A stretch of 64,000 nucleotides of DNA, from contig JACKFD010000001.1 of assembly GCA_020632655.1 (NCBI GenBank), positions 611,492 through 675,491 on the forward strand, read 5' to 3'. This document shows positions 1-45,795 of this stretch, piece by piece; within the stretch, counting starts at the first letter, position 1, and the number at the start of each line of letters is the position of its first letter. This DNA comes from Spirochaetaceae bacterium. GTDB taxonomy: Bacteria; Myxococcota_A; UBA9160; UBA4427. A program made the position numbers and the translations under genes. The notes under the pieces are model-generated. The model ran no database searches, was not told the origin of the DNA, and was given only the letters and a program-made list of their open reading frames with translations.

Positions 1-1
1 C

Positions 2-748: not shown

Positions 749-763
749 GAAAGGGTCGACCAC

Positions 764-1873: not shown

Positions 1874-1931
1874 ATCGCAGATTGAGCCGGCCCGGGCCGC
1901 CGACCGCGCCTCGGACCAGGGAGAGGGATGG

Positions 1932-3143: not shown

Positions 3144-3162
3144 TACGAGGTACGGCGCGCAC

Positions 3163-6302: not shown

Positions 6303-6318
6303 GACGACCTTCGCTCGC

Positions 6319-31313: not shown

Positions 31314-31356
31314 CGACGGTCCGCCGCGAGGCAGTCGAGGGGATGCAGGCTCATCG
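31291..31356. repeat. 25-bp perfect direct repeat (two copies, 41 bp apart)
   Basis: CAGTCGAGGGGATGCAGGCTCATCG at 31291-31315 and at 31332-31356. Confidence 0.9.
31310..31354 (-). promoter_or_regulatory. 14-codon upstream ORF (MSLHPLDCLAADRR) bridging sir2 and the symporter by two ATGA overlaps
   Basis: Its ATG overlaps the sir2 TGA (31351-31354). Its TGA overlaps the symporter ATG (31310-31313). Its first 7 codons duplicate the symporter's first 7 codons. Confidence 0.4.
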
Positions 31357-32142
31357 CGCTTCCGGCACGAGCCTCGGCAGGATCTCGCTGATCGAGCCCC
31401 GCAGCAGGGCGTCGGCGAGGGCATCCATCTCCGTCGCGTCCCCGTTCACGATCACGATCCGTGCGCCGCACTCCTTCGCGAGGGGCACCATGCCCGCGAT
31501 GGGGTAGACGGCCAGGGTCGTCCCGATCGCGAGCAGCAGGTCGCAGGCCTCGGCGGCGCGCTGGGCGCGGGCGAGGTCGCGGGCGACGAGCCCCTGGCCG
31601 AAGGAGATCGTCGCCGACTTGAGGATCCCGCCGCAGGTCCGGCAGGGCGGATCGTCCTCGCCGCCGCGCACCCGCGCGAGCGCGCGTTCCATCGGCGCGC
31701 GCTCGCCGCAGCCGAGACACTCGACCTCCTGCAGCGTGCCGTGGATCTCCACGACGCGCGCCGCGTCCTGTCCCGCGGCCTGGTGAAGTCCGTCGACGTT
31801 CTGCGTGACGAGGGTGTCGAGACGGCCGAGGCGCTCGAGGTCGACGAGGGCGCGATGGCCCGGGTTGGGCTGCCGGCGCTCGGCCTCGGTCGCAAGGCGC
31901 CATTGCCAGGCGCGGCGGCGGGTCTCGGGGTCCGTGACGTAGACCTGGAGCGTCGCCATCTTCTCGGCCTCGGGGTTGCGCGTCCAGAGGCCCTTCGGCC
32001 CGCGGAAGTCCGGGATGCCCGAGTCCGTCGAGATGCCGGCGCCGGTCAGCGCCACGACGTGCCGGGCCTCCGCGATCCAGCCGCGTACGGCGTCGATGCG
32101 TTCGGCGAGGTCCGCGTCGAGGGGGCCATCGCCCGAGATCAT
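31351..32142 (-). CDS. cobB: NAD-dependent protein deacylase, Sir2/CobB family
   Basis: GAGISTDSGIPDFRG, TQNVDGLH, catalytic HG, and a Zn ribbon CLGCG...CRTCGG. I prefer the start at M18 of the track ORF (MISGDGPL). Confidence 0.85.
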   Translation of the reverse strand: MISGDGPLDADLAERIDAVRGWIAEARHVVALTGAGISTDSGIPDFRGPKGLWTRNPEAEKMATLQVYVTDPETRRRAWQWRLATEAERRQPNPGHRALVDLERLGRLDTLVTQNVDGLHQAAGQDAARVVEIHGTLQEVECLGCGERAPMERALARVRGGEDDPPCRTCGGILKSATISFGQGLVARDLARAQRAAEACDLLLAIGTTLAVYPIAGMVPLAKECGARIVIVNGDATEMDALADALLRGSISEILPRLVPEAR

Positions 32143-32173
32143 CCTGCTCCTCCGGTCGGTCCTGGGTCGTGGC

Positions 32174-33226
32174 CTAGCAGCAGCTCGTGCCACTGCCGGT
32201 CCGCTGATCGTGCCAATGTCCGAGGTCGACGAAGAGGCCCTGCTCGGCGGCGGCCCGGAGCGCCCGCTCGGGCTCGATCACGAAGGGCCCCTCCCGCACG
32301 ACCTCGAGGGTCGCGCGCTCGCCCGGGGCGAGCACGATCTCGCGATCGCCGTCGAAGGCGAGCAGACCAGGACCGGTCCAGACGACGCTCGCCCCGAGCT
32401 CGATGCGCTCGACGGCGTCGATGCCGACGGTCTGGTAGAGCCCGGGGGAGATCGGTGCGCGGAGCGACTTGCCCGAGGTCTCCGGCCGGGGCTCGGGGCG
32501 CGTGCGGACCTCGACGCCGAAGTCGTCCTCCGCGCCGCAGGGCAGGAGCAGACCACCGACGGGCGACAATCCGACGCTGGCCGGCTCGGCCCGGGCCAGC
32601 AGGATGCGCGACAGCTTCTGCGGGTCGGCCTGCAGCAGACTGCCCGGGTGATCGTCGACGAGCAGGGCGGCGTCGATCAGGGCGATCGACTCGCGGCCGT
32701 CCTCGCAGCGCACCCGCACGCGCTTCGCCCGCCGCCCGGCGCGATCGCGCGCCAGCCGTCCGGACGCGACGAGACCGGCCGCAGCGCCGGCGATCGTGGC
32801 CTCGACGTGGAACGGAAAGACGTTGTTGGTGCCGGTCGAGAGGGGCAGCAGCGCGACATCCGGCCAGACCTGCGCGATCGCGCGGCTCGTGCCATCGCCC
32901 CCGAGCGCCACGATCGCGCCGCAGCCCGCCTCGTGCATGGCGAGGGCGGCCGTCTGGCTGTCTCGGCCGCGGCCGGTCAGCGGGCCCTCGAGGATCTCGA
33001 TCCCGACGTCGAGGGCGAGCCCATCCGTCGCCTGGGCCGTGATGCGGAACGCGTCGCGCGAGAGCAGGATGCGCCGGACGCCGGCGGCCGCGGCGCCGAC
33101 CACGATGCGCGTGACCTGGTTGCGCTTGTCCTCGATCGTCGAGGTGCCGGCGCGCGCGAAGAGACGACGGGTGTCGCGTCCGGAGTGCGGGTTCACGATG
33201 AGGCCGAGCGTGCCCTGCGCTTGCAT
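32174..33226 (-). CDS. ATP-NAD kinase-like (AcoX-type) family protein
   Basis: LGLIVNPHSGRD and ALGGDGTSRAI (GGDGT) motifs of the NAD kinase/DAG-kinase fold, ~350 aa. ATG at 33226 (MQAQGTLG). Confidence 0.7.
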   Translation of the reverse strand: MQAQGTLGLIVNPHSGRDTRRLFARAGTSTIEDKRNQVTRIVVGAAAAGVRRILLSRDAFRITAQATDGLALDVGIEILEGPLTGRGRDSQTAALAMHEAGCGAIVALGGDGTSRAIAQVWPDVALLPLSTGTNNVFPFHVEATIAGAAAGLVASGRLARDRAGRRAKRVRVRCEDGRESIALIDAALLVDDHPGSLLQADPQKLSRILLARAEPASVGLSPVGGLLLPCGAEDDFGVEVRTRPEPRPETSGKSLRAPISPGLYQTVGIDAVERIELGASVVWTGPGLLAFDGDREIVLAPGERATLEVVREGPFVIEPERALRAAAEQGLFVDLGHWHDQRTGSGTSCC

Positions 33227-33514
33227 GGCGCAACGATATGACGTGCCCGCGACGAAGGCGAGGGAAGACCGCGCGATCGCATCGGGGACGGGCCCGGGCG
33301 CACCTGCACGGAACGCCCCAGGCGGCGCGTCGACGTGGCGCTCGTTTGCGACTTCGCGCGTCGGCAACGCGCGATCCGCTCAAGCGCAGACCGCGCGCAG
33401 GCCGATGCAGCCAGGGCCGGCCTTGCGTGCGTTCTGCGCGCGCGTGCTCGTTGCGGGCGTGCCCTTCCGGGTGGACGGAGGCGGGCGCGACGGCTCTCCG
33501 GCGAGGAGGAAGCG

Positions 33515-35035
33515 GTGTCGAGATCCGGCGAGTCGGCGACCGACGGCGCCCCCGGACGCAGGCGTGGCGCCATGCGAAGGGCGGGGGGCCTGCTGCTCCT
33601 CGGGCTCGCGGTGGGCGGGGTCGTCGCGCTGGCGGTCCGCGACGTCGAGTCGCGCCGGATCGCTCACGCGGAGCGGGCCGCGCGTGCGCTCGCCGGCCGC
33701 GCGGAGGTCGCGCGGCGGCTCTTCGCGAGCGAGGATGCGCGGCTCGTCTCCGAGCTCGCCCGGGTGCGGGTGGAGCTGCGGGACCAGGCGCTCTGGCCGG
33801 GTCTCGAAGGGCTGCTCGACGAGTCCGGACGGCTCGACACGCGCGGGGTGGGCGGGCGGAGGCTGCACGCGCTCCTGTCCCAGGCCCTCGAGCAGGACGA
33901 TCGTCTGGTGGGCTTCGATCTCGTCGTCGCCGGACACGGCGGGCTCGTCTCGCTGCGCTTCCCGGACGAGGGCGGCGTGGATGGGCGGCCGGGCGCCGAC
34001 AGCGAGGGGACGGATCCGGCCCGCCTTCGCGAGGGACGTGCGAAGGCGCTCTGGTACGGGGACGAGGTCTCGCGCGCGGTCGCGTCGAACGGTCGGGCGG
34101 TCGAGCGCGGCGAGGTCGGCTTCGAAGGCGCGGGCGACGTCGAGCGCGCGATGCTCGGAATGGCGATCGGTCTGCATGCGCCGGGCGAGCTCGTGCAGGG
34201 CGCCTTGCGGGCGCGGATCGACGTGGGCCGCATCGCAGCTGGATTCGAAAGGCTCGCGGGCCCGGGCGATGCGCTCGCGGTCGTGCTGCTCGACGGGCGG
34301 CGGGTGGATGCGGCCGGCCGCCTGCCCGGCAGTGCGCCGGACCCCCGGCTGGCCGCGTGGGCGGCCCGCGTCGCTGGTCCGACGGCGGGGGAGTCGAGCT
34401 TCGAGGACGAGGGACGCCTCGTTCATGCCTCGCCGCTCACCACCGCGGACGGCGGCATCGCGCATCTGTTGCTGCTGCAGGAGACGCCCTCGGCCGCGAC
34501 CGGGGCCGCCGCCTGGCTGGCCTCGCCCTGGCCGATCGTGCTCGCCGTGCTCGTGGGCGTCGCGCTGGTGGCAAGTGCGCTGATGCTGCGGCCGGCGTCC
34601 GCGGCCGGGACGGTCGCCGGGTCGGCCGGTGTCGGGGCGGACGACGGGATCCGTGTCGCGCCGCGCGACTTCGTGCTGCGGGAGTGGCTGGCGGACGTGC
34701 GGGGCTGCCTCGAGCGCGAGGCCGCCACCCGGGGCCTGGTGCTCGACCTGCGCTGCGAGCGATCGCTCCCGTCGGAGCTCGTCCAGGATCCGGCCTGGCT
34801 CGGCGGGCTGATCGTGGCGATGGGGCGCGAGGCGCTCGACGCGACGACCCTCGACGGGGTCACGCTCGAGGTGGCGGAGGAGCAGGGCCGCGCGCTCTGC
34901 TTCGAGCTGCACGCCGGCGAGGCGAGGCTCTCGCCGGTCGCGGGCATGCAGGAGGTGGCCGAGCGGATCGGCGCCCGGCTCGAGTCGCGTCGCGGTGGTC
35001 GCATGGCGCTGGTGCTGCCGGGCGCGCTCGCCTGA
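33515..35035 (+). CDS. Membrane sensor with a degenerate histidine-kinase ATPase-like C-terminus (pseudo-HK)
   Basis: TM1 (LLLLGLAVGGVVALAV), a ~370-aa extracytoplasmic region, TM2 (WPIVLAVLVGVALVASALML), then an HATPase_c-like ~130 aa. There is no DHp/H-box, and the N-box and G1-box residues are missing. GTG at 33515 is preceded by AGGAGGA. Confidence 0.55.
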   Translation: MSRSGESATDGAPGRRRGAMRRAGGLLLLGLAVGGVVALAVRDVESRRIAHAERAARALAGRAEVARRLFASEDARLVSELARVRVELRDQALWPGLEGLLDESGRLDTRGVGGRRLHALLSQALEQDDRLVGFDLVVAGHGGLVSLRFPDEGGVDGRPGADSEGTDPARLREGRAKALWYGDEVSRAVASNGRAVERGEVGFEGAGDVERAMLGMAIGLHAPGELVQGALRARIDVGRIAAGFERLAGPGDALAVVLLDGRRVDAAGRLPGSAPDPRLAAWAARVAGPTAGESSFEDEGRLVHASPLTTADGGIAHLLLLQETPSAATGAAAWLASPWPIVLAVLVGVALVASALMLRPASAAGTVAGSAGVGADDGIRVAPRDFVLREWLADVRGCLEREAATRGLVLDLRCERSLPSELVQDPAWLGGLIVAMGREALDATTLDGVTLEVAEEQGRALCFELHAGEARLSPVAGMQEVAERIGARLESRRGGRMALVLPGALA

Positions 35036-35103
35036 AATCCGCGGTGCGCGCGGATCGACCCGGCGGGCCGATGGCCGCGCGACGCGTCGCCGAAGGACTC
35101 TCG

Positions 35104-38040
35104 TCAGCTCCGTCGGCTGGCCGCGGGCCAGGGCTGACCGACCTGCTCGGGCGTCTGGACCTGTGCATCGAGTGCGAAGAGGCCGACGCCATGGCGTGCC
35201 GTCAGGTGTTCGGTGAGTGTGCGACTCTCGTCGATCGCCATGATGGATTCGAGCAGGCGCATCGACTCCGGGTCCTCCGGCGACAACGCGAAGCCCCGCG
35301 CCGGTCCCACCACCAGATCGACGAGATGGCCCATTCCGCCGAGCACGATCGGCTCGAATCGCTCGAGGAGTCGATCGGCGGGCTCCGGCTCGTGTCGGCT
35401 CGCACCGCCGTCGTCGCCGCGATGCGGGATCACGCAGAGCCCGTCCGCCGCGATCAGCGAGTCCGGCAACACGGACCAGAGCTCCTCGAGGCGGATCAGC
35501 GTCGAGGCCGAGAGCTGGAGCGGCCCGGATCCCACCCGCCCGGCGAAGAGCAGGAGCGCGCCCCCGCGCATCGCCGTCTCGCAGTGATCGAGGATGCGAT
35601 CGAGCTCCGGCTGACCTTCCAGGGCGTCGCTCAGCAGGATCGCGTGGCAGGGAGCGTCGGCGCGCCAGACGTCGAGGTCGCCGGTCACGACCTCGATGAT
35701 CTCGCCGAGCCCGGCGAGCTCGATCTTCTGGCGTCGCGCGTCGGCGCAGGCCGGGTCGCGATCGAGCACCTCGAGCCGGACCGATTCCCGCCCGAGCGCG
35801 TGCAGCGCCTGGACGAGGCGTACCTCCGCCTCCGGCAGGCTCCCGCCGAGGCTGCGTAGATAGACGAACTCGGGGCCCGGCGTGCCGAGCCAGACTTCGA
35901 GCCGTTCCGCCAGGTAGGCGTGGACGGAGACCAGCTCCGGCTGACCGGCGATCTCCCCGAAGCATCGATCGCGCCAGCTGGACAGGATCGGCGGGATGCG
36001 GGCCGGCGCCGCGAGGATCGGCTCGGCCGGCGGCGTGTCCGGCGTCGCGTCGCGTTCGATCGGCGCATCGTCGAGCGTCTCGGTCACGTCCACGTCGAAG
36101 TCGTCGTCGCACGCGTTCTGCGCGTGCGGCGCGGCGGACGTCACGTCCTCCGCCGCGGGCTTCGCGTCGTCGATCGGCTTCGTCTCGGGCGCTCGCACCG
36201 GCGCGTCGACGGGCGGCCGGGCCGGCATCGATTCGGGTCCGGGCAGCGACTTCGACGCGCCGACCGAGGCGCTCCCGGCGCGGTCGTCGGCGTCGTCGTC
36301 CGGCTCGGGCGCGGCGTCCGTCGCATCGACCGCCGCGGGCGTCGGCGCCGGGCTCGGGGCGCGCGGCGTGCGCGCGGGCCGGGTGCGCGAGGTCGGATGG
36401 ACGAGCGTGCGCTGGGAGACCGGTCGCATCGGGTCGCTGCGGGCGGGGCTCGGCGGCGCGAGCGAGATCTCGCCGATCCCACGTCCCATCGCCTGCTCGA
36501 TCCGGCCGAGCGTCTCGGTCAGGGTCGCGATGCGCACCTCGCGCCGCTCGACCCGGGCCTGCAGCTGTTCGAGGTCGAGCTGACGACGCTCGAGCTCCGT
36601 CTCGAGGGACTCGGTGCGATGGCCGACCTGGTCGAGTCGTTCGCGCAGGTCGAGGATCTGCGCGTCCCGCGTGGCGAGTCCCCGGCGCATGACGGCGAGA
36701 TGCTCCTCGCGGGCGGTGATCTCGAGGTCGCGCGCGGAGAGGGTCTCCTCGAGTGCGGCCTGTGTGCTGCGCAGCTCGTTGTTCTCCGCCTGCAGGCGGG
36801 CGGCGAGGGCGAGCACCTCGCGGTGCTGCTCGAGGGCCTCGGCGAGCTGTCCGTCGTGATCCTCGAGCCGGGCCTCGAGCTCGGCGGCGCGATCGGCGTG
36901 GTGGTCGATCTCGTGCTGGCGATCCTCGATGCGCGCCTGTGCGATCGCGAGGTCGGTCTCGGTCGCCGACAGCCGGCTGGCGAGTCGGGCCTGATCCTCG
37001 AGCGCGTCCTCGAGCCGACCGCGGAGACCGACGACCTCGGCACGCAGCGCGCGTTCGCCCTCCGGAAGCGGGATCAGCGCGCCGCGGGCCGCCTTCAGCG
37101 AGGCCTCGAGCTTCTCGGCGCGACCCTGGGCCTGGACGAGCTGGCCGCTGGTCGCGGCGAGCTGGTCGATCAGCTGGTCGCGCTCGATGCCCAGGGTGTC
37201 GATCTCGCTGCGCAGGCGCTCCTCGATCTTGTCGAGCTCCGCACGCGGGATGGCGTCGGGATCACGCTTTGCCGCTGCGGCACGCAGATCCTCGACCTCC
37301 GATCCGCTCGCCTCGACGGCTGCCAGGAGCGACGCGCAGCGCGTGCGGAGTGCTTCGACCTCGGCGCGCAGCGCAGCCACTTCGGGCGCGCTCGTCCCCG
37401 AGCCGGCGGGCTCGGCGTGGGTCGCCGCGATGGCCTCCCGCGCGAGGACCTCGTCCGCCCGCTCGGAGAGCGTGGTCTGCATGCCCTCCTTGGCGGGGCG
37501 CGGCGCGACCTCCTCCCACTCGCGCGCGTCGGCGTCTTCGCTGGCCTCGGCCGGCGCCGCCATCGGCGCTTCGACCCGGGGCGGTTCGGCCGGCGCGGTC
37601 TCGGCAATGGCCCTGGCGTCGTCCTCGTCCTCGTCTTCCCGATCCGTCGGCGCGTCGGCCGCATCGGACTTCGCTTCGTGTACGTCTTCGGCTTCGTCGT
37701 CGGATGCCGCGTCGACCTCGTCGTCGGCCGCCCGGTCCTCGCCGTCCTCGTCATCCGCGTCGTCTGCTTCATCCCCGTCGTCGTCGAATGCGGACGCGTC
37801 CGCGCTCTGGAGCTCCGCCTCGGGCTCCTTCTTCGAGGCGGTCCTGGCGGGCGGCGGCGCCTCTTCCTCGTCCTCGGCCGAGTCGGCTCCGGGGCTCCCG
37901 TCGCTGCCGAAGCCCATCTGCCGCGCGAAGTCGAGCTCCTCCGCGGACAGGGTCGACGTGTCGACCCGGAACGAGTTGTCCAGGCCGGGTCCGTCGTCGC
38001 CGTCGGTCCCTTCGTGCTGGTCGTGGTCGGCGTCGGACAT
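35104..38040 (-). CDS. Large acidic / coiled-coil protein with a C-terminal class-I SAM-methyltransferase-like domain
   Basis: ~980 aa. An N-terminal ~220 aa that is very Asp/Glu-rich. ~300 aa of heptad-like coiled coil (LRAEVEALR...LEQLQARVERREVRIATL). A Pro/Ala linker. A C-terminal Rossmann-like pattern: YLRSLGGSLPE / RLEVLDRD / VVTGDLDVW...HAILLSDALE / MRGGALLLFA. Confidence 0.6.
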   Translation of the reverse strand: MSDADHDQHEGTDGDDGPGLDNSFRVDTSTLSAEELDFARQMGFGSDGSPGADSAEDEEEAPPPARTASKKEPEAELQSADASAFDDDGDEADDADDEDGEDRAADDEVDAASDDEAEDVHEAKSDAADAPTDREDEDEDDARAIAETAPAEPPRVEAPMAAPAEASEDADAREWEEVAPRPAKEGMQTTLSERADEVLAREAIAATHAEPAGSGTSAPEVAALRAEVEALRTRCASLLAAVEASGSEVEDLRAAAAKRDPDAIPRAELDKIEERLRSEIDTLGIERDQLIDQLAATSGQLVQAQGRAEKLEASLKAARGALIPLPEGERALRAEVVGLRGRLEDALEDQARLASRLSATETDLAIAQARIEDRQHEIDHHADRAAELEARLEDHDGQLAEALEQHREVLALAARLQAENNELRSTQAALEETLSARDLEITAREEHLAVMRRGLATRDAQILDLRERLDQVGHRTESLETELERRQLDLEQLQARVERREVRIATLTETLGRIEQAMGRGIGEISLAPPSPARSDPMRPVSQRTLVHPTSRTRPARTPRAPSPAPTPAAVDATDAAPEPDDDADDRAGSASVGASKSLPGPESMPARPPVDAPVRAPETKPIDDAKPAAEDVTSAAPHAQNACDDDFDVDVTETLDDAPIERDATPDTPPAEPILAAPARIPPILSSWRDRCFGEIAGQPELVSVHAYLAERLEVWLGTPGPEFVYLRSLGGSLPEAEVRLVQALHALGRESVRLEVLDRDPACADARRQKIELAGLGEIIEVVTGDLDVWRADAPCHAILLSDALEGQPELDRILDHCETAMRGGALLLFAGRVGSGPLQLSASTLIRLEELWSVLPDSLIAADGLCVIPHRGDDGGASRHEPEPADRLLERFEPIVLGGMGHLVDLVVGPARGFALSPEDPESMRLLESIMAIDESRTLTEHLTARHGVGLFALDAQVQTPEQVGQPWPAASRRS

Positions 38041-38218
38041 GGATGTGTCCCGCAGGCGGGGTTCCCTCCGGCCTTGCGCATCGGTTGCGGTCGGGAGCGG
38101 CTTGACGCGCGACTGGGTCCCGGCGCACAAAGCGAGGCTTCGCCCGACCGCGGATCGGGTGAATCACGGAGACATTCGTCGGGTGTTAGTCGAGGTCTCG
38201 TCGTGGGGCGAGCGCGGG

Positions 38219-39724
38219 CTAGGCGCGGCCGACCTGCGGTCGGCGGCGGGGCGGTCCGCTCGCGATGCGATCGGCCATGCTGCGCACCATGCGTACGGCG
38301 ACGGCGGGGTTGCAGGTCACGAGCTGCTCGAGCTCGGCCTCGTTGAAGAGGCAGCACCACGTGATGCCCCGTGCGCGAAGCGTCGCGTGCCGTCGCGCTC
38401 CGGTGAGCGTGGAGATCGCTCCGAGGAAGGTGCCTTCGCGCGTCTCGACGGCGACGGCTCGATCGTCGATCTCGACCTCCACCGCGCCACGCAGCAGGAG
38501 CACCGTGTGCTGGGCGGCGTCGTTCACGTTCGCGATCGTCTCGCCGTCGGCGTACTTCACGAAGTAGCGGTCGAAGCCCGGACCGCGGCAGATCGAGGCC
38601 CAGAGCGGGTCGACCAGGGTGTCGATGATCCGCGCGATCTCGCCGGGATCGGCCTGACTGCGGCGGGCCGACGCGATCGTGGCCGTGTCGAGACCGAAGC
38701 CGCTCGCGATCGCGCGGATGCGGGCGAGCACCTCGCCCGTGCCGCCCGGTCGCCGGCTCGGGTCGATGTAGAGCAGGCCCATCACGATCTCTTCGAGCGG
38801 CGGCGGGCAGTCGAGGGCGACGTCGGAGAGGTTCTTCAAGCCGAAGATGTTGCCCTGCTCGCGGGTGCGCAGGACGTCGTGACGCTTGTTGAGGTCGATG
38901 CCCGTGAAGAGCGCCCAGGCGGTCGCCCCCACGCCCCAGAGATCCGTACGGAGATCGAAGTTCTGGACCTTGGCGGTCGCCTGCTCCGGCGCGCGGTAGC
39001 CATGGGTGCCGAGCCCGATCGAGAGTCGCCCCTGATGCAGCAGGCCCTTCGACATGCGCGAGGAGTGGGAGACGCCGAAGTCCGTGAGGACGTAGCCACC
39101 ATTGCCGTCGAGCAGCACGTTCGAAGGCTTGACGTCGAGGTGCAGGATCGAGGCGCGATGGGCGGCGCCGAGGGCCTGCATGAGGTCGGAGAGCAGACGC
39201 CAGGTCTGCTCGGCCGAGAGACGTCCCAGGAAGGGCCAGGCATCGGCGAGACTGCCGGCCGGGAAGTACTGGATCGCGGCGAAGGTCGTGTCGCCGTCGA
39301 TGCTCCAGTCGTAGAGCTTGGGGATCCGGTCGTGGTGTACGGCGAGCAGCGCCGCCAGCTCACGCTTCAGCGAGTTCCGCGCCTGCGGATCGTCGGGGCG
39401 CGCCATGACCTTCAGGGCCACGAGCTTGGGCGGACGACCATCGCTCCCGTCGCCGCTCGAGTCGAGGCAGCGCGCCAGGAAGACCGAGCCGAAGCCCCCG
39501 CGTCCGAGGCGTCGCAGCAATCGGTAGCGGTAGCGGGCCTTGAGCTCGTCGCCGGGCTGCAGGGCGCGCAGGCCCGACGGGCTCTCCTGACTCTGGCCGC
39601 CGGCGGTCGCCGTGCAGTCGAGCGTGCGATCCTCTCCCACCGCATCGGGCTCGGCCTCGAGCACGATCGTCCGGGACGCTCCGCTATGGGAACGACGACG
39701 ATTGGAACCGGAAGGGGCGCCCAA
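38219..39724 (-). CDS. Ser/Thr protein kinase fused to a C-terminal cyclic-nucleotide-binding domain
   Basis: G-loop LGRGGFGSV, VALKV Lys, catalytic loop HLDVKPSNVLL (non-RD), DFG, GYRAPE. The C-terminal cNMP-binding beta-barrel is FVKYADGETIANVNDAAQHTVLLLRGAVEVE...FLGAISTLTG.RRHATLRA. Confidence 0.85.
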   Translation of the reverse strand: MGAPSGSNRRRSHSGASRTIVLEAEPDAVGEDRTLDCTATAGGQSQESPSGLRALQPGDELKARYRYRLLRRLGRGGFGSVFLARCLDSSGDGSDGRPPKLVALKVMARPDDPQARNSLKRELAALLAVHHDRIPKLYDWSIDGDTTFAAIQYFPAGSLADAWPFLGRLSAEQTWRLLSDLMQALGAAHRASILHLDVKPSNVLLDGNGGYVLTDFGVSHSSRMSKGLLHQGRLSIGLGTHGYRAPEQATAKVQNFDLRTDLWGVGATAWALFTGIDLNKRHDVLRTREQGNIFGLKNLSDVALDCPPPLEEIVMGLLYIDPSRRPGGTGEVLARIRAIASGFGLDTATIASARRSQADPGEIARIIDTLVDPLWASICRGPGFDRYFVKYADGETIANVNDAAQHTVLLLRGAVEVEIDDRAVAVETREGTFLGAISTLTGARRHATLRARGITWCCLFNEAELEQLVTCNPAVAVRMVRSMADRIASGPPRRRPQVGRA

Positions 39725-39828
39725 GGGGTCTCCGTCCGCGGGCCGTCGGGCGGGCCTGCGTGTCGAGACGCCTTATCGGTCGCGGATGGGGGAAGCCGCA
39801 GGGCATTCGCGAGCGGCTGCTGCGGCGT

Positions 39829-40158
39829 TCAGGAGGGCTTGCCGTCGTCCTGCTGCTTGCTTGCCTCCGCCTGCTCCTCGCGGAACTCCTTGATGCCGCG
39901 CGGAACGAGCCAGAGACAGATCGGGATCATGATGCCGAACATGATCCGGTTGAAGCCCTGGTGCTCGAGCATGTCGGGGTCGGTCGTCAGGAAGCCGTCG
40001 TACCCGAACCAGAGCGCGAAGGCGACCAGCAGCACGGGCAGGAAGAGTGGATGGTAGAGCGGGTTGGGCGGCGGGCCCCGTCGCTCGGCGCGCTCCGAGG
40101 CACGGGGATCGCGTTCCGGCGGCGGGGCGGATTGGTCCTGCGACATGCGCCCGAGCAT
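39829..40158 (-). CDS. Small 2-TM membrane protein, hypothetical
   Basis: 109 aa with two hydrophobic helices (LFLPVLLVAFALWFGY; IMFGIMIPICLWLV) and GC-rich third positions. It lies upstream of, and co-oriented with, the kinase gene. Confidence 0.5.
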   Translation of the reverse strand: MLGRMSQDQSAPPPERDPRASERAERRGPPPNPLYHPLFLPVLLVAFALWFGYDGFLTTDPDMLEHQGFNRIMFGIMIPICLWLVPRGIKEFREEQAEASKQQDDGKPS

Positions 40159-40251
40159 AGCGCCGTCGCGCGCCGCCGAGCCATGCTTCGCTGCTTGCCG
40201 CCACGCGAGCCGGGTGTCACGTTCCGCGCGGTGACTGCGACCGGAGGTTCC

Positions 40252-40746
40252 TTGTCGAAGCCGAGCGACTACATCACCCGTGCGGGCTTTCTCTCGCTCC
40301 GCTCCGAGCTCGACTGGCTGTGGAAGGAGGAGCGTCCGAAGGTGACCGAGGCGGTCGCGACCGCTGCCGCCCTCGGTGATCGGTCCGAGAACGCGGACTA
40401 CATCTACGGCAAGAAGCGGCTGCGCGAGATCGATCGCCGCATCCGCTTCCTGACCAAGCGCCTCGACGAGCTCCAGGTGGTGGATCCCGGACCGCGACAG
40501 GATCCCGACCGGGTCTACTTCGGCGCCCGGGTCACGCTCGAGGACGAGGAGGGGGCGACGGTCCGCTATCAGCTCGTCGGGCCCGACGAGTTCGACGCCG
40601 CGGCGGGGCGCATCAGCGTCGACTCCCCGGTCGGCCGTGCGCTGATGGGGCGTCGGCTCGGGGACGAGGTCGTCGTCCGCCGGCCGCGGGGCGAGATCGT
40701 CTACTCGATCGAGGCGATCGACTACGACGAACGGGAGATGCGCTGA
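40252..40746 (+). CDS. greB: Transcription elongation factor GreB
   Basis: ITRAGFLSLRSELDWLWKEERPKVTEAVATAAALGDRSENADYIYGKKRLREIDRRIRFL closely parallels E. coli GreB. TTG at 40252 after GGAGG (alternative GTG at 40231). Confidence 0.85.
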   Translation: MSKPSDYITRAGFLSLRSELDWLWKEERPKVTEAVATAAALGDRSENADYIYGKKRLREIDRRIRFLTKRLDELQVVDPGPRQDPDRVYFGARVTLEDEEGATVRYQLVGPDEFDAAAGRISVDSPVGRALMGRRLGDEVVVRRPRGEIVYSIEAIDYDEREMR

Positions 40747-40798
40747 GCGGGCACGCCGGGGACGGCGCGCGCTCGGGGCATCGTGGTAGGCTCGCGCC

Positions 40799-41389
40799 GT
40801 GTCGGACGCGTCGCTCTGGATCTTCGGCTACGGCTCGCTCGTCTGGCGTCCGGCCTTTGCCCATCGCCGCGCGGTGCCCGCCTCGATCGAGGGCTGGGCC
40901 CGGCGTTTCTGGCAGGGATCGACGGACCATCGCGGCCTGCCCGACCGCCCCGGCCGCGTCGTCACGCTCCTGCCCCGGGCGCATCCGATGCTCTCGCGCT
41001 GTCCCCACCCGCCGGAGCCCTGTTGGGGTACGGCCTACGAGGTCGAGGCGGCGGCCGCCGACGCCGTGCTGGCCGGGCTCGACCATCGCGAGCGCGGGGG
41101 CTACGCGCGCCTCGAGATCGAGATCCGCCTCACAGGGCACCCACCGCGGACCGTGCCGGGCCTGGTCTACGTCGCGACACCCGAGAATCCGGAGTTCCTC
41201 GGTCCCGCGAGCCCCGAGGCCATCGCCCGACAGATCGCGACGGCCCGGGGGCCGAGCGGCGCGAACCCGGAGTACGTCTTCGAGCTGGCGCGAAGCCTGA
41301 GGGCGATGGCGGCGCCGGATGGCCACGTCTTCGAGGTCGAGGCAGCGCTGCTCCGGGTGCTCGGGGAGGCGGACGGCCCGCGCGGTTGA
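40799..41389 (+). CDS. ChaC-like gamma-glutamylcyclotransferase
   Basis: The LWIFGYGSLVWRP N-terminal motif and ...GRVVTL...AYEV...ERGGY... pattern of the ChaC family. Confidence 0.8.
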   Translation: MSDASLWIFGYGSLVWRPAFAHRRAVPASIEGWARRFWQGSTDHRGLPDRPGRVVTLLPRAHPMLSRCPHPPEPCWGTAYEVEAAAADAVLAGLDHRERGGYARLEIEIRLTGHPPRTVPGLVYVATPENPEFLGPASPEAIARQIATARGPSGANPEYVFELARSLRAMAAPDGHVFEVEAALLRVLGEADGPRG

Positions 41390-41430
41390 GCGGGCCGGAT
41401 GGGGGATTCAGGCGGGGAGCCGGGGGGACG

Positions 41431-42402
41431 ATGGACCGGGGCATGCTGCTCGATCTCGCCTTCCTGATCCTGCTCGTGGGGCTCGCCGCGCTCGGAGCGT
41501 GGCGGGGTGCCATCCCGAGTGGCTCGGGCCTGCTCGCCATGATCGCCGGCTACGCCGGGGCGATCGTGGCCGCCAGCCTGGGCGCGGGCTGGGTTGCGGA
41601 GACGCTGGTCGTCTCGCCGTGGATCGCGCCGGCGATCGCGGGCACGATCGGCTTCGCGGTCGCCTACCTGGTGGCGAGCGCGGCGGCGGACGTCGCGGTC
41701 GCCTGGGATCGGGCGCGGGTCGAGCGCGGTGGACGCGGCGCCGTCGACCGCGGATTCGGAGGGCTCTTCGGGCTCGCGCGCGGCGCGCTGCTCGTGGTGC
41801 TGCTCGCGATCGGCACGAGCTGGCTCGACGCCGCCCGGGATCTCGGGGTCGTCGAGGGTCTCTCGGGCGTGCCGGAGACCGACGGGTCGAGCGTGGCGCG
41901 GGCCTCTGGCGATCTCGTCGAGGCGGCGGTCTCGACGGCGCTCGCCGATGCGGGGCCGGCGGCCGAGGTCGCGGCGCGCATCACCGCCCGGCCCGGTCGC
42001 ACGCTCGGCAGCATGCAGGGGCTGCTCGAGGACGAGCGCTTCTCGGGACTCTTCGAGGACGCGATGGTCTGGACCCTGATCCAGAACGGGTCGATCGACT
42101 ACGCCATGAATCGCGCCTCGGTCCGGTCGATCGTGAACGATCCCGAGATGCGAGGGCGATTCGCCGATCTCGGTCTCGTCGGCGAGGCCGCGCGCGAGGA
42201 TCCGGCGGCGTTTCGCGAGGCGATGTCCGGCGTGCTCGCGGAGGTCGGGCCGCGGGTCGCGCGGCTGCACCAGGACGAGGAGCTGAAGGCGCTGGCGACC
42301 GATCCCGAGATCGTCGAGCTCGTCCAGGCCGGAGACACCCTTGCCCTGATGGGTCATCCCCGGATCCAGCGAATCGTCGCCCGCCTGTCGAGCGACCTCT
42401 AG
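41431..42402 (+). CDS. CvpA-family membrane protein with a soluble C-terminal extension
   Basis: N-terminal 4 TM helices in the CvpA arrangement (LLDLAFLILLVGLAALGAWRG...). ATG at 41431. Confidence 0.65.
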   Translation: MDRGMLLDLAFLILLVGLAALGAWRGAIPSGSGLLAMIAGYAGAIVAASLGAGWVAETLVVSPWIAPAIAGTIGFAVAYLVASAAADVAVAWDRARVERGGRGAVDRGFGGLFGLARGALLVVLLAIGTSWLDAARDLGVVEGLSGVPETDGSSVARASGDLVEAAVSTALADAGPAAEVAARITARPGRTLGSMQGLLEDERFSGLFEDAMVWTLIQNGSIDYAMNRASVRSIVNDPEMRGRFADLGLVGEAAREDPAAFREAMSGVLAEVGPRVARLHQDEELKALATDPEIVELVQAGDTLALMGHPRIQRIVARLSSDL

Positions 42403-42492
42403 AACGACGGGCTGGCCACGCGTCCGAGTGGAGCACGCGGCGCGACCGCTCGATTCGGCGATGGCCCGGCGAGGACACACCGACAACACAGA

Positions 42493-42525
42493 GAGCCCGC
42501 GAACCGGCCGGGGCCGGGCGGGCTC
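42493..42525. terminator. GC-rich hairpin between convergent cvpA and the small ORF/sulfotransferase unit
   Basis: GAGCCCGC ...17 nt... GCGGGCTC with no clear U-tract. Confidence 0.35.
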
Positions 42526-42558
42526 GAGATCCGGCTCGTGCCGACTCGCCGGACGCGC

Positions 42559-42732
42559 CTAGAAGAGCGGCCGGTCGTCGCCGTCCGGCGCGTAGGCCGA
42601 GATCTCACAGCAGAGCGAGATCTCCTGCGCGGACGGTCGCTCGAAGCGGGCCGTGCCGGGGCGGCTCGGGTCGGGTCGGTTCGGGTTCGCGGCGCCGAAG
42701 GACGTCGCGGGTCGCTGGATGCGTTCTTCCAT
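42559..42732 (-). CDS. 57-codon small ORF downstream of the sulfotransferase (candidate modified peptide)
   Basis: MEERIQRPATSFGAANPNRPDPSRPGTARFERPSAQEISLCCEISAYAPDGDDRPLF. About 90% G/C in the third codon position, like the real genes here. It sits 59 bp after the sulfotransferase stop on the same strand, and a hairpin follows. No clear SD, and no homology that I can assert. Confidence 0.35.
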   Translation of the reverse strand: MEERIQRPATSFGAANPNRPDPSRPGTARFERPSAQEISLCCEISAYAPDGDDRPLF

Positions 42733-42791
42733 GACGCGGGGATATAGCACAGCACCGGCGTCGCCCGGCCAGTCCACCGACTCCGCTCGGG

Positions 42792-43817
42792 TCAGCGCAG
42801 CAGGACGTCGCAGACCTCGCGCAGCTTCCGCACCAGCCGGCCGAGGGCGTTGTCCGGGCGGATCCGGCGCCGCACCGCCACGAGCAGCCGTCGCTCGAGG
42901 GCGTAGCGGGTGAGCGGGGGGCGGGGGGCGCGGCGACCGCCCAGGTCGATCGCATCGAGCTCCGCCGCGATGCCCGCGCGCTCGAAGCCCCAGGTCTCGA
43001 GGTCCTCGTCGGCCAGCCGCGCGAGGATCGCTCGGTAGAGCGCCACGCGTTCCGGCCGGCCGGTCGCTGCCCGTGCCCATTTCGACAGGCTGGCCGTCGT
43101 CGGGCGCGTCTCGCGGGAGACGTTGGTCGGGTCGCCGAGTCCGCGGGTCGACTCGCCGCGTGCGTCCGGGGCCTCGCCGTAGTCGACCATGCCCGCGGAC
43201 TCCTCGATGCCCAGGAAGGCGCAGAGCTCCCGGGCATGGCGCTCGGGCTCGCGCACGAGCGCCTCGTAGCGGATCGCGTGGATCGGCACCGGCCGGGTGC
43301 GCAGGAAGCGCGCGATCGCCGGGACGTAGCGCTCGAGCAGCGGATTGTGCTCGTGCGCGACGGCGTCGTCGCCGTCGAAGAAGGAGTCGACGTAGGAGGA
43401 CCAGACGGCCATCGGATGTCGCGTCAGCACGACGTAGCGCGCCTGCGGATAGAGGCGCGCCAGGAAGTCGAGCGAGAGTGCGTAGGCCGGCGTCTTGTCG
43501 AGCAGGAGGGACGCATCGTCTCCTCCGGCCGCGCGTCGGAGGCCCGCGTAGATCGCGTCCGTGTACGCGCGCAGCGCGTCGAGGTAGGCCGCCTCGCCGC
43601 CGGGCAGGGCGGCGACCAGCGCCCGCGCGGCCGTGCGCGTGATGACGGGATCGTAGGGGGCGCGCTCGACGCTCTCGAAGTAGCCGAGGTGCGCGATGGG
43701 CGTGATCAGGTGCGGCTCTTCGGGCGCGACGATCGCCGGGTGCGCGCCGAGCATGCGGCTCAGCATCGTCGAGCCCGAGCGCGGCGATCCGATCAGAAAG
43801 ACGAGCCGATCCTGCAT
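42792..43817 (-). CDS. Sulfotransferase family protein (TPST/RaxST-like, Sulfotransfer_3-type)
   Basis: The 5'-PSB motif VFLIGSPRSGSTMLSRMLGAHP resembles the tyrosylprotein sulfotransferase GxPRSGTTL motif. A 3'-PB-like region RYVVLTRHP is present. ATG at 43817 (MQDRLVFLIG). Confidence 0.8.
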   Translation of the reverse strand: MQDRLVFLIGSPRSGSTMLSRMLGAHPAIVAPEEPHLITPIAHLGYFESVERAPYDPVITRTAARALVAALPGGEAAYLDALRAYTDAIYAGLRRAAGGDDASLLLDKTPAYALSLDFLARLYPQARYVVLTRHPMAVWSSYVDSFFDGDDAVAHEHNPLLERYVPAIARFLRTRPVPIHAIRYEALVREPERHARELCAFLGIEESAGMVDYGEAPDARGESTRGLGDPTNVSRETRPTTASLSKWARAATGRPERVALYRAILARLADEDLETWGFERAGIAAELDAIDLGGRRAPRPPLTRYALERRLLVAVRRRIRPDNALGRLVRKLREVCDVLLR

Positions 43818-43940
43818 CACGTGCCCTGCGCTCCCCGAGTCGTGTCGGGCGCCGCGCCGGCGCCGCGCCGCCATCGCGGCGGGCTCGCGGGCCGGGACGA
43901 ACGCCGCGGAGCGCGCGAGGATAACAGCGTGCGAGGAGGG

Positions 43941-44780
43941 CTACAGCGTCTGGCTCGCGAGGCCCAGGGTCTGCGCCATGCGCTGGGCGTGGACGCGGAG
44001 CAGGGCGACGCCGAGGCGATGACCCAGCCAGGGCTTCATGCTGCGCAGGTGCCGGAAGGAGGCCTGGTCGATCTCGAGCAGGCGGACGGGCGTGTTCGCG
44101 ACCGCAGACTCCGCGTGGGGCAGATCCGCCAGCAGCGGAAGGCCGCCGAAGAGATCGCCGACCGAGAGCTGGCAGAGGGGCTGCTCGATCGCATTCCGGA
44201 TGCGCACCTGCAGCGTGATGCTGCCCTCGGTGATCAGGAAGATCGAGTCGTTCATCTCACCGTGCGTGCCCTGCCGGTAGATCGTGTCGCCGGCGTTCAT
44301 CGTGCGGAAGCGCGTGACCTGGGCGAGGCCCATCGCCTCCTCGAGTCCCAGCTCGTGCAGCGCCGTCCGCTCGTAGAGGAATCGCGCGAGCTTCTTGCCC
44401 GAGTCGAGGACCTGGTCCCAGACCGCCTCGAGCTGCTCGGGATGCGGTCGCTCGAAGGAGATGCCGGTCAGGACGAGGTCGTCGCTCGGGTCGGAGCGCT
44501 GCCAGCAGCCGACGGCATCGATCGCGAGGCGCTGGCTCGGCAGGCCGAGAATGACGCGCTGGATCGATTTGATGGCGAAGGGGGATTGAGTCGCGATGCA
44601 CGCGCCGCCGATGCTCAGGTCGCGGGTGCGGCCGTGCAGGGCGCCCGAGAAGTCGCTCGTGTAGATCTCGACCGGCACGTCCGTCCCGACGCGGGGATTC
44701 GAGCGGACCTCGAGGGGGTCGACGGGCGGGGCAGCGGCCCGGGGCGAGGGAGAGCGGGGATCGGAGTCGGACGGGGTCAT
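43941..44780 (-). CDS. PilZ domain + cyclic-nucleotide-binding domain protein
   Basis: The N-terminus has RSNPR (RxxxR) and DLSIGG (DxSxxG) PilZ c-di-GMP motifs. The C-terminus has a cNMP-binding barrel (FRTMNAGDTIYRQGTHGEMNDSIFLITEGSITLQV...GDLFGGLPLL). Confidence 0.75.
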   Translation of the reverse strand: MTPSDSDPRSPSPRAAAPPVDPLEVRSNPRVGTDVPVEIYTSDFSGALHGRTRDLSIGGACIATQSPFAIKSIQRVILGLPSQRLAIDAVGCWQRSDPSDDLVLTGISFERPHPEQLEAVWDQVLDSGKKLARFLYERTALHELGLEEAMGLAQVTRFRTMNAGDTIYRQGTHGEMNDSIFLITEGSITLQVRIRNAIEQPLCQLSVGDLFGGLPLLADLPHAESAVANTPVRLLEIDQASFRHLRSMKPWLGHRLGVALLRVHAQRMAQTLGLASQTL

Positions 44781-44883
44781 ATACTCGGCGCCTCGATGGG
44801 GCCGTTTCGGTCGGGGTGCAATGGGACTTGAACGCTCCAGCCCGACGCGAGCGGGCCGCGCGGGCGCCGTGGTCGGAGGGGCG

Positions 44884-45795
44884 ATGGACGACGCGACGGG
44901 CGCGGCGGCAAAGGCCGGAGTGGAAGTGGGGGGATCGCCCGGGATGCGACGGAACGGACTCGAGCTCGCGGTCGTCGTCGTGACGCTCGTGCTCTGGATC
45001 CCGGGGCTGCGCGTGCTGGCCGGCGTGTATGGCGAGGTCGAGTGGGCGTCCCACGGCTTCCTCGTACCGATCGTCGCGCTCTGGGCGGCGACGGCCCATC
45101 GCGCCGCCCTGGCCGATCGGCCGGCCCGGCCGCTGCGAGGCGGCGTGGCGCTCCTGGGTGCGCTCGTCCTCGCCTATCTCGCGGCGCTGCTCTTCGGTAA
45201 TCCGAGCGTGATCGGCCTGGTCGGCGTCGCGACCGTGGTCGGTCTGGTGGCGGCGCTGCGGGGGCTCGCGTGGGTGCGCACGCTCGCCTTTCCGCTCGCC
45301 TATCTGCTCTTCATGGTCCCTCTGCCGACGGCCTGGATCACGCCCGTCATCGTCCGGCTCCAGCTGCTCGTGAGCAGCGTCGCCGTCGCGTTGCTGCGGG
45401 CCTTCGACGTGGCGATCCATCGCGACGGCAACGTGCTGACGCTGCCCGGGGACGTCACGCTCTTCGTGGCGGAGGCCTGCAGCGGCATCACGTCCCTCGT
45501 CACGCTGCTCCCGATCGGCGTCTTCATCGCCTACTTCACGGAGTCCGTGCCCTGGCGACGCGTCGCGCTGGTCGCGGCGGTCGTCCCGATCGCGCTGCTC
45601 GGCAACCTGATCCGGGTGGTGCTGACGGTGGCCCTCGCGATGCGGGTCGACGTCGCCTTCGCGACGACCGGACCCGTGCACGAGTGGGCCGGCGTCGCGA
45701 CCTACGTGCTGGGCTGTCTGTGTCTGCTCGCGGTCGGCGCGGGGCTGCGACGGCTGGGCGGCGGGGCGCGCTCGGACGCCGGCGTTCCGGCATGA
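44884..45795 (+). CDS. Exosortase-family transpeptidase (subtype undetermined)
   Basis: A polytopic membrane protein with the exosortase signature residues: FVAEACSG (catalytic Cys), GNLIRV (Arg) and VHEWAG (His). ATG at 44884 follows GGAGG; the track ORF begins at 44821. Confidence 0.8.
   Translation: MDDATGAAAKAGVEVGGSPGMRRNGLELAVVVVTLVLWIPGLRVLAGVYGEVEWASHGFLVPIVALWAATAHRAALADRPARPLRGGVALLGALVLAYLAALLFGNPSVIGLVGVATVVGLVAALRGLAWVRTLAFPLAYLLFMVPLPTAWITPVIVRLQLLVSSVAVALLRAFDVAIHRDGNVLTLPGDVTLFVAEACSGITSLVTLLPIGVFIAYFTESVPWRRVALVAAVVPIALLGNLIRVVLTVALAMRVDVAFATTGPVHEWAGVATYVLGCLCLLAVGAGLRRLGGGARSDAGVPA

Follow-up and report, generated by a model that had tools for sequence, protein, structure and literature searches.

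A kinase with a cyclic-nucleotide-binding domain and a coiled-coil protein with an eroded methyltransferase fold: one module or two gene pairs in uncultured Myxococcota?

Introduction

Do a small membrane protein, a protein kinase carrying a cyclic-nucleotide-binding (cNMP) domain and a large coiled-coil protein form one signalling module when their genes follow one another on the same strand? The question is raised by positions 35104-40158 of a 64,000-nucleotide stretch of contig JACKFD010000001.1 (positions 611,492 to 675,491 of the forward strand; assembly GCA_020632655.1). This whole stretch, referred to here as the window, has a guanine plus cytosine (GC) content of ~73% and comes from the 73% GC genome of an uncultured marine myxobacterium. 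An initial annotation, made from the sequence of the window, had read the three genes as a single module. The genes proved to be real and syntenic within one clade of relatives, but their distribution favours a division into two separable pairs, the second of which includes a convergent gene that the annotation had missed.

The reading that we prefer, with a probability of about 0.55, is that one clade of uncultured Myxococcota, known mostly from marine samples, carries two separable gene pairs next to each other. Pair A would comprise a protein with two transmembrane (TM) segments and a soluble non-RD Hanks Ser/Thr kinase with a cNMP domain. Pair B would comprise a protein of 978 amino acids (aa) and a membrane protein encoded convergently to it.

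Gene content of the locus

Three open reading frames (ORFs), all on the minus strand and in one orientation, fill positions 35104-40158. They encode 109 aa, 501 aa and, when counted from a TTG, 1008 aa, and the gaps across the three genes are 104 and 178 nucleotides (nt). All three are real ORFs in the common orientation that had been described for them. A divergent greA gene lies upstream of the block, and a plus-strand gene at 33572-35035 converges on its other end. The main features are:

39829..40158, minus strand: small membrane protein with two TM segments, 109 aa, the conserved partner upstream of the kinase
38219..39724, minus strand: non-RD Hanks kinase with C-terminal cNMP_binding domain, 501 aa (Pfam, orthologue alignment)
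38064..38107, minus strand: conserved non-coding block CGTCAAG-N14-GCAACCGATGCGCA-N5-GGAGGG in the spacer between the kinase and the large gene (10 of 10 orthologous regions aligned)
35104..38040, minus strand: large protein, 978 aa plus stop, with N-terminal motif, acidic disorder, coiled coil, Pro/Ala linker and methyltransferase-fold domain (ORF and 10 orthologues)
33572..35035, plus strand: convergent membrane protein, 487 aa plus stop, with a TM segment, a ~340-aa ectodomain, a second TM segment and a ~120-aa domain resembling a degenerate histidine-kinase ATPase, the conserved partner of the large protein

Distribution of the genes among relatives

Neighbourhoods were compared by scanning 31 relevant loci and the window with hidden Markov models (HMMs) and by inspection of the flanks. 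The kinase and the large protein were found in the same order and orientation in the window and in 13 related loci, so that their synteny in relatives is established (large protein after the kinase in L001, L002/3, L006-L009, L020, L085, L086, L088, L089 and L096). This arrangement was seen only where the kinase is at least 81% identical to that of the window. Eight loci carry the kinase without the large protein (L004, L010, L013, L014, L016-L019), and the pair of kinase and small protein likewise occurs without the large protein in eight loci. With the exception of L010, these are also all the sufficiently flanked loci with a kinase at 59-70% identity, none of which has the large protein.

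The slot between the kinase and a NAD-kinase-like gene is occupied differently from locus to locus:

Window (33368-38218): large protein and convergent partner
L004: low-molecular-weight phosphatase
L013 and L017: SDR and POT transporter
L010: nothing, the kinase (82% identity) being followed directly by the NAD-kinase-like gene

Because its content varies while the flanking genes stay syntenic, the slot looks like a local hotspot of gene gain and loss. L010 lacks both the large protein and the partner, and in a neighbour-joining tree without bootstrap its kinase is nested inside the clade; this nesting implies that the two genes were lost together.

Separation was also observed in the other direction. 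Large-protein homologues without a cNMP-domain kinase in the sequence covered were found in L091, L094, L095 and L097. The arrangements in these loci, and in L090, are as follows:

L094: divergent che operon upstream, partner downstream, no kinase; large gene and partner convergent
L095: divergent response regulator upstream, partner downstream; convergent pair
L090: partner and NAD-kinase-like gene
L091 and L097 (60% GC): aminotransferase upstream; neither partner nor kinase in the short flanks

In the window, as in 14 of 14 kinase-clade loci that have the large gene, the convergent gene faces it tail-to-tail. A partner HMM built from clade sequences only recognized the L094 homologue over nearly its full length (3e-31) and the L095 homologue in its C-terminal domain (2.6e-10); in the 10,314 ORFs of the 97 loci scanned, nothing further outside the kinase clade matched. 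In L094 (positions 1-6637) the pair adjoins a chemotaxis operon encoding CheA, CheW, CheB, CheR, a response regulator, HDOD and CheX.

The spacer between the kinase and the large gene

The spacer between the kinase and the large gene measures 138-249 nt in relatives, and the conserved block within it is located 25-70 nt upstream of the large-gene ATG. Since this block lies between the two genes, separate regulation of the large gene is suggested, and the block may be the large gene's own promoter or operator. A scan of 34800-40500 gave no sigma-70-type promoter or intrinsic terminator above shuffled expectation. RNA structure predicted for the block with RNAalifold was weak (-7.8 kcal/mol, 2 covarying pairs) and a Rfam scan of 34900-40400, which included the block, returned no match. 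With the structure signal this weak, an RNA element was not adopted.

These results bear directly on the possibility that the small protein, the kinase and the large protein are a single module in which a kinase activated by cyclic AMP (cAMP) or cyclic GMP (cGMP) phosphorylates the scaffold, with the membrane partner perhaps as a fourth member. Consistent with such a module, the window and the 13 loci agree in gene order and orientation even though the large-protein domain diverges to ~40% identity, the kinase is catalytically intact with a cNMP domain that passes Pfam, and the disordered regions of the large protein contain 12-15% Ser plus Thr together with conserved short motifs that could be docking sites. 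However, the whole neighbourhood is syntenic in the kinase clade (GreA, ChaC, CvpA, sulfotransferase, PilZ-cNMP, NAD-kinase-like, SIR2), and adjacency therefore says little about a module; the sole evidence pointing from the kinase to the scaffold is adjacency inside this syntenic clade. The kinase moreover persists without the large protein in the eight loci, including the nested loss in L010, and its HMM score is ~930 both with and without the large protein at the locus. Large-protein homologues exist for which the sequence covered contains no cNMP-domain kinase, the conserved block suggests that the large gene has its own regulation, and it is the convergent membrane protein which is the more consistent partner of the large protein. 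A single module is thus an unlikely reading of the locus, if one to be kept in mind, and two separable pairs remain the reading that we prefer.

The kinase and the small membrane protein

The 501-aa protein passes the curated Pfam cut-offs for both of its domains, PF00069 for the kinase and PF00027 for the C-terminal domain, which bears out the assignment of a cNMP-binding C-terminus made in the initial annotation:

38744..39526, minus strand: kinase catalytic domain, residues 67-327 (Pkinase 105.7 bits, cut-off 31.7, E=3.4e-30)
38318..38560, minus strand: cyclic-nucleotide-binding domain, residues 389-469, with an atypical phosphate-binding cassette (cNMP_binding 39.1 bits, cut-off 27.5, E=7.7e-10)

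The VAIK Lys K105, the helix-C Glu E122, H195-L196-D197 with the HxD Asp, the catalytic-loop Asn N202, D215-F216-G217 and A245-P246-E247 are invariant in 15 aligned orthologues, and the catalytic motifs are likewise conserved in an alignment of 117 homologues. An arginine before the catalytic aspartate marks the RD subclass of kinases, which depends on activation-loop phosphorylation. This arginine is absent from the kinase, and the catalytic loop reads H-L-D, as had been noted, in all 15 orthologues. With its catalytic residues and the HLD loop invariant, the protein is by its sequence a soluble, catalytically intact non-RD Hanks Ser/Thr kinase. It contains no transmembrane segment and no PASTA-type sensor of its own. 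The closest solved kinase domains in a PDB search were those of CIPK (CIPK23/24), Aurora, StkP and PknB (E ~1e-17).

The cNMP domain aligns to the cyclic-nucleotide-binding domain of SthK and to PKA-R, PKG and CAP. Its cassette reads FLGAISTLTGARRHATLRA, compared with the canonical FGE....PR(S/T)AT..A. The cyclic-phosphate contact R445 is invariant in orthologues and aligns with the Arg of PR(S/T)A in SthK and PKA-R, while the Gly-Glu of the cassette has become G435-A436. Ala436, which is at least 90% conserved among orthologues, replaces the Glu that binds the ribose 2'-OH. Epac proteins also lack this Glu and yet bind cAMP, and the change is for that reason compatible with ligand binding. 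Gating of the kinase by a cyclic nucleotide is plausible, and we infer that a ligand would control its activity.

Two more cNMP_binding proteins are encoded within 16 kb of the kinase. That at 43944-44780 (minus strand) is a PilZ and cNMP_binding fusion with a degenerate cassette, which is syntenic in L001, L002 and L096; that at 52999-54189 (plus strand) is a 397-aa cNMP-domain protein with a canonical FGE...RTA cassette.

At least 120 homologues of the kinase were found, with identities of 63-100% among the matches listed; almost all contain both domains and most derive from metagenomes. Scanning one genome per GTDB species gave 17 orthologous kinase loci, all of them in metagenome-assembled genomes (MAGs) and most labelled Myxococcota or Deltaproteobacteria, so within that scan the orthologue group is confined to uncultured Myxococcota MAGs.

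With respect to the 109-aa protein, hydropathy analysis revealed hydrophobic segments at residues ~33-57 and ~68-90, in keeping with the two TM segments predicted for it. A core motif, HPLFLPVLL..LWFxYDGF..DPxMLEH..FNR, is kept in relatives, and in L001, L002 and L004 the protein encoded upstream of the kinase is 40-64% identical to it. Of the 22 kinase loci that have upstream sequence, 18 carry the small protein ahead of the kinase as detected by HMM, among them some whose kinase is only 62-70% identical. No significant match to it was found in Pfam, NCBIfam, PADLOC or PHROGs. Tethering or regulation of the kinase at the membrane is its probable role.

Architecture of the large protein

While the large ORF can be read from a TTG (35104-38130, 1008 aa), the ATG at 38040 matches the starts of the orthologues and gives 978 aa. 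GC at third codon positions is 0.87-0.95 in every segment, as expected in a 73% GC genome, and the ORF is therefore taken to be coding throughout. One architecture, with conserved and variable blocks, is common to the 10 orthologues aligned:

37906..37983, minus strand: N-terminal linear motif LDxSFxVDxxxLxxxExDFAxxMGFG, residues 20-45, conserved in 10 orthologues, the flanking acidic sequence not conserved
37444..37524, minus strand: second motif WEEIxPRxAxxGxQxxLxxRAD, residues 173-199, where the acidic region ends (10-orthologue alignment)
36451..37443, minus strand: coiled-coil rod, ~330 residues (~200-530), recognized by periodicity and by the absence of Pro in ~330-525
35971..36450, minus strand: Pro/Ala-rich linker, residues ~531-690, 19% Pro and 18% Ala, varying in length and sequence among orthologues
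35107..36021, minus strand: domain of 305 aa with a predicted class-I methyltransferase fold, its motif I eroded and the signature motifs of its parent family missing (AlphaFold2, Foldseek, phmmer)

The division of a ~980-aa protein into four parts made in the initial annotation was borne out, including the Pro/Ala linker, with some corrections. The acidic region had been taken for almost pure Asp, Glu and Ala, but consists of 33% Asp plus Glu and 20% Ala, and is variable among orthologues; the coiled coil had been given ~300 aa at nt ~36480-37380 and is present, but extends over ~330 residues at nt ~36451-37443. Hydrophobic periodicity at 3.5 residues is evident over residues ~200-530 (z = 4-8 against shuffles), and two blocks of the rod, PLPEGERALRAEVxGLRxRL and RLQAENNELRSxQAALEETLxARDLEIxAREEHL, are near-invariant. 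The rod resembles only coiled-coil proteins, for example the coiled-coil arm of SMC (E=1e-8). An SMC or Rad50 identity was rejected, as TIGR02168 scored 33.4 bits against a cut-off of 567 and matched in the coiled-coil arm only, not in the ABC-type ATPase head or the hinge that characterize that family.

A PDB sequence search with the N-terminal 560 residues produced no match. The large protein fits no Pfam or NCBIfam family beyond coiled-coil noise, and its homologues in contig look-ups have no Pfam match on record. Having no model in either collection, it is, as far as its sequence can be classified, an undescribed family.

The C-terminal domain

The structure of the C-terminal domain was predicted with AlphaFold2 from a 30-sequence alignment at a pLDDT of 93.8 and a pTM of 0.92. 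Foldseek returned 483 matches in the PDB at E<=1e-3, with E down to 2e-8, and the best 50 were all class-I S-adenosylmethionine (SAM) methyltransferases (TTHA0223, sarcosine/dimethylglycine methyltransferase, DnrK, RebM, TleD); TM-scores were only 0.3-0.45 because of a family-specific extension. The Rossmann-type segment of the initial annotation thus had the right fold, but its ~190 aa fell short of the whole domain, which spans ~305 aa (nt 35107-36021).

At the sequence level the relationship is remote. No Pfam methyltransferase matched the domain at E<=0.1, none did in NCBIfam, and a PDB sequence search gave no match. An exhaustive phmmer search of 1.84 billion representative proteins identified 75 relatives. 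The best of these are proteins of 650-1000 aa whose C-terminal part is this domain. At the weak end (E 1e-4 to 1e-10) stand canonical methyltransferases, 30 of 46 of which match Methyltransf_25/12 models. When the homologous canonical segments were re-scanned, two of three scored above Pfam cut-offs. Sequence homology of the domain to methyltransferases is therefore transitive only, via these canonical relatives. A word-index search with the domain gave only 3 fragmentary matches, one of them chimeric, and missed the large proteins themselves; with a mixed alignment, canonical stand-alone methyltransferases dominated and no new members of the coiled-coil subfamily appeared.

Two database entries call for comment. 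P0003 (ENA, 219 aa), which matches 35107-35370, is 100% identical to the last ~88 residues of the large protein, but its N-terminus is NAD-binding-like and unrelated; a chimera created by assembly or gene calling is the most likely explanation. P0134 (L096 7001-10459, 1152 aa), in which the domain seemingly lies mid-protein, was set aside as a gene-call artefact that reads into the antisense of the partner gene.

Comparison with the canonical relatives gave the following motif states:

Motif I: canonical SLGxGNxDxE, window SLGGSLPEAE (second Gly lost; position varies within the clade)
IGRNGHxRWPEAL of canonical relatives: VGSGPLQLSAS in the window protein
Block with RAQD of canonical relatives: deleted in the window protein
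FVDRxFGPNFDP of canonical relatives: VVGPARGFALSP in the window protein

In motif I, for which the family form is SLGxGN, the window has SLGGSL, with the first Gly kept and the second replaced by Ser. This second position is occupied by Gly, Asp, Glu, Ala or Arg in clade relatives. The loop LRSLGGSLPE had been called degraded, and the second Gly is indeed lost, but the loop is conserved among orthologues (SLGGSLPDAE) and, from the alignment, is a fixed variant rather than the product of random decay. D87 (VLDRDP) aligns with the Glu of canonical CLELNP, a position that is acidic in 15 of 16 clade members, and 41 positions are invariant across 9 diverse members, a sign of clear purifying selection. 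The label "degenerate methyltransferase fold" is correct. Catalysis has likely been lost, and because the motif-I Gly and the parent-family motifs are gone the domain is most likely a binding or recognition module, not an enzyme.

Would an active methyltransferase with a divergent motif I account for these data equally well? The coiled coil would then position the domain or set a distance as in WbdD, the O-antigen chain-length regulator of Escherichia coli O9a, and its target, whether glycan, lipid or protein, would lie at the membrane and be set by the convergent membrane protein. The parent family is widespread, canonical and often fused to glycosyltransferases and sulfotransferases. The purifying selection on 41 positions and the survival of S57, G59, D87 and D115 fit an enzyme, and a sulfotransferase and an exosortase are encoded within 6 kb. 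WbdD unites a class-I methyltransferase fold with a eukaryote-like kinase fold and a long coiled coil (PMC3482155). WbdD, however, is one polypeptide in the order methyltransferase-kinase-coiled coil with both enzymes active, it phosphorylates a sugar and it lies in an O-antigen cluster. At the window locus the parts are on separate proteins, the domain order differs, and the kinase, which carries a cNMP domain, resembles protein kinases, WbdD being absent from the best 60 PDB matches listed for it. No glycosyltransferase or Wzm/Wzt transporter gene is adjacent. The domain itself is detected by no Pfam methyltransferase model, its second motif-I Gly has given way to Ser (in relatives to Asp, Glu, Ala or Arg), and the other invariant motifs of the parent family are replaced or deleted. 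With the motifs eroded, a kinase of the protein-kinase type and no adjacent genes for glycan assembly, a WbdD-like reading ranks lower, and an active enzyme seems to us rather improbable.

The convergent membrane partner

The second member of pair B looks like a sensor, with a weakly Cache-like ectodomain and a tail related to a degenerate histidine-kinase ATPase domain. The C-terminal ~120-aa domain is highly conserved. In the window protein no Pfam match exceeded the cut-off; hints of dCache_1 were sub-threshold (E 0.006-0.06), and the L095 homologue scored 16.9 bits against the HATPase_c cut-off of 26.4 (E 0.0087). A profile search of the PDB placed histidine kinases at the top (7p8e, 0.0016; 7z8n, 0.0022; RetS, 0.25). 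The partner alignment shows no recognizable H-box or DHp, N-box Asn, G1 box or G2 box, and no receiver domains. With HATPase_c below its cut-off and the boxes and the DHp His unrecognizable, the protein falls outside the definition of a sensor histidine kinase. No Pfam or NCBIfam model describes it, and on that measure it too is an undescribed family.

Neighbouring genes

Beyond the features described, positions 40201-45792 encode GreA, ChaC, CvpA (Colicin_V), a sulfotransferase, a PilZ-cNMP protein and the exosortase EpsH, and positions 31354-33367 encode a NAD-kinase/DAGK-like protein and SIR2. The nearby sulfotransferase and exosortase are a hint at cell-envelope functions. Many spurious long antisense ORFs were observed in the window, an artefact typical of high-GC sequence.

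Discussion

The genes, their domains, the fold, the motif states and the gene-neighbourhood pattern are as observed. Under the two-pair reading, a 2-TM protein and a soluble non-RD kinase with a cNMP domain would function as one unit, and the 978-aa protein with its convergent membrane protein as another. The large protein would be an elongated scaffold, its coiled-coil rod reaching ~50 nm if continuous, and its C-terminal domain would descend from a bona fide class-I SAM methyltransferase family and act most likely in binding or recognition. The membrane protein would be the sensor, its ectodomain Cache-like and its tail resembling a degenerate histidine-kinase ATPase. A single acquisition at the base of the clade would have placed pair B between the kinase and the NAD-kinase-like gene, and in different lineages the large protein and its partner may associate with different signalling systems. 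The members of each pair would be expected to interact physically. Crosstalk between the pairs, including phosphorylation of the scaffold by the kinase, is conceivable.

Several observations weigh against parts of this reading. Throughout the clade the kinase and the large gene are on one strand with 138-249 nt between them, even where the domain of the large protein diverges to ~40% identity; the constant strand and close spacing make a functional link between the two pairs possible. Two lineages, L091 and L097, have large-protein homologues without the partner in their short flanks. The positions for contact with SAM, S57, G59, D87 (at the end of strand 2) and D115, survive in the methyltransferase-fold domain, which may bind SAM or even catalyse. 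For the partner, domain assignments rest on sub-threshold scores (E 0.002-0.06), and a single-sequence structure model reached a pLDDT of only 41. Finally, the change of Glu to Ala in the cassette of the kinase could mean a ligand other than cAMP or cGMP, or no ligand.

A bolder possibility is that all four genes form one membrane-associated assembly built largely from pseudo-enzymes, in which a Cache sensor with a dead histidine-kinase ATPase domain recruits a ~50-nm rod carrying a dead methyltransferase domain, and a cNMP-gated non-RD kinase, tethered by the 2-TM protein, phosphorylates the disordered regions of the rod. We regard this as a long shot. An anti-phage defence island, in which a mad6-, PD-T4-6- or PglW-like kinase would work with a methyltransferase-like partner, was rejected as highly improbable, as the matches of the kinase domain to PADLOC mad6 and PD-T4-6 (E 5e-43 to 1e-16) and to NCBIfam MAD6 and PglW reflect only generic kinase-domain similarity and, at 99.8 against 460 and 57 against 990, lie far under what NCBIfam requires. 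Further defence components are absent, PADLOC matched the large protein weakly and in its coiled-coil region only, and neither the small protein nor the membrane partner had a PADLOC match. Across 17 related MAG loci the kinase is conserved at 59-88% and its housekeeping synteny is stable, a pattern not expected of a mobile defence gene. A phage origin was also rejected, there being no PHROGs matches for the large protein, the small protein or the membrane partner.

With the two pairs retained as the preferred reading, each can be set beside known systems. Like eukaryotic PKG, and PKA with its R subunit, pair A joins the catalytic domain of a Ser/Thr kinase to a cyclic-nucleotide-binding beta-barrel, which keeps the cassette Arg and the Ala-Thr after it, and the cNMP domains of PKA-R and PKG are among the best solved matches. 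In contrast to those kinases, the window protein is bacterial, is paired with a 2-TM protein, and has a single C-terminal cNMP domain instead of an N-terminal tandem. It has Ala in place of the ribose-binding Glu, and an HLD non-RD loop in a catalytic domain nearest to CIPK, Aurora, StkP and PknB. It therefore lacks the combination of N-terminal cNMP domains and an AGC catalytic domain that defines the AGC-type PKG and PKA. All the Hanks motifs are shared with kinases of the PknB/StkP type, but the window kinase differs from these in having neither a transmembrane segment nor a PASTA-type sensor in its own chain. In bacteria, PP2C phosphatases with a C-terminal cNMP domain have been described in Myxococcales (PMC2887360), a survey of the Planctomycetota kinome names the cNMP-binding domain as one of those that accompany Ser/Thr kinases (PMC11032199), and a cAMP-sensing EAL phosphodiesterase provides a further precedent for a bacterial cNMP-domain fusion (PMC6717892). 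The literature searched contained only such surveys and analogous fusions, and no experimentally characterized bacterial kinase with a cNMP-binding domain was found in it.

For pair B, the nearest relatives of the methyltransferase-fold domain are the stand-alone class-I SAM methyltransferases with SLGxGNxDxE (Pfam Methyltransf_25/31/12/11/23), a family annotated only as "class I SAM-dependent methyltransferase". The homology extends over ~300 aa, including the family-specific C-terminal extension, and the predicted fold is the same. Unlike these enzymes, the window domain has lost the second motif-I Gly, IGRNGHxRWPEAL, RAQD and FVDRxFGPNFDP, follows ~670 residues of disorder and coiled coil, and goes undetected by Pfam. 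The partner is comparable to RetS-like degenerate histidine-kinase sensors in that it is a membrane protein whose extracytoplasmic domain is sensor-like and whose C-terminus aligns with histidine-kinase ATPase domains; it is unlike them in lacking a recognizable H-box or DHp, N-box, G1 and G2, in scoring under family cut-offs and in having no receiver domains. Both proteins are probably divergent, non-catalytic offshoots of known folds in a new arrangement.

For genome scanning, these results indicate that conserved adjacency in one clade is weak evidence for a functional module. It was the patterns of gain and loss and the contexts outside the clade which changed the picture of the genes that seem to belong together. 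The immediate impact is limited, as the organisms are uncultured and no phenotype or cellular process is implicated. If the four-gene assembly of pseudo-enzymes were true, it would be a bacterial signalling architecture without a described counterpart. In the large protein and its partner, the methyltransferase and histidine-kinase ATPase folds would have been repurposed as apparently non-catalytic scaffold modules. And if the C-terminus of the kinase does bind a cyclic nucleotide, these Myxococcota would have a bacterial PKG-like solution, kinase and cyclic-nucleotide domain in one chain, independent of the eukaryotic AGC kinases and with a different domain order and a non-RD catalytic loop.

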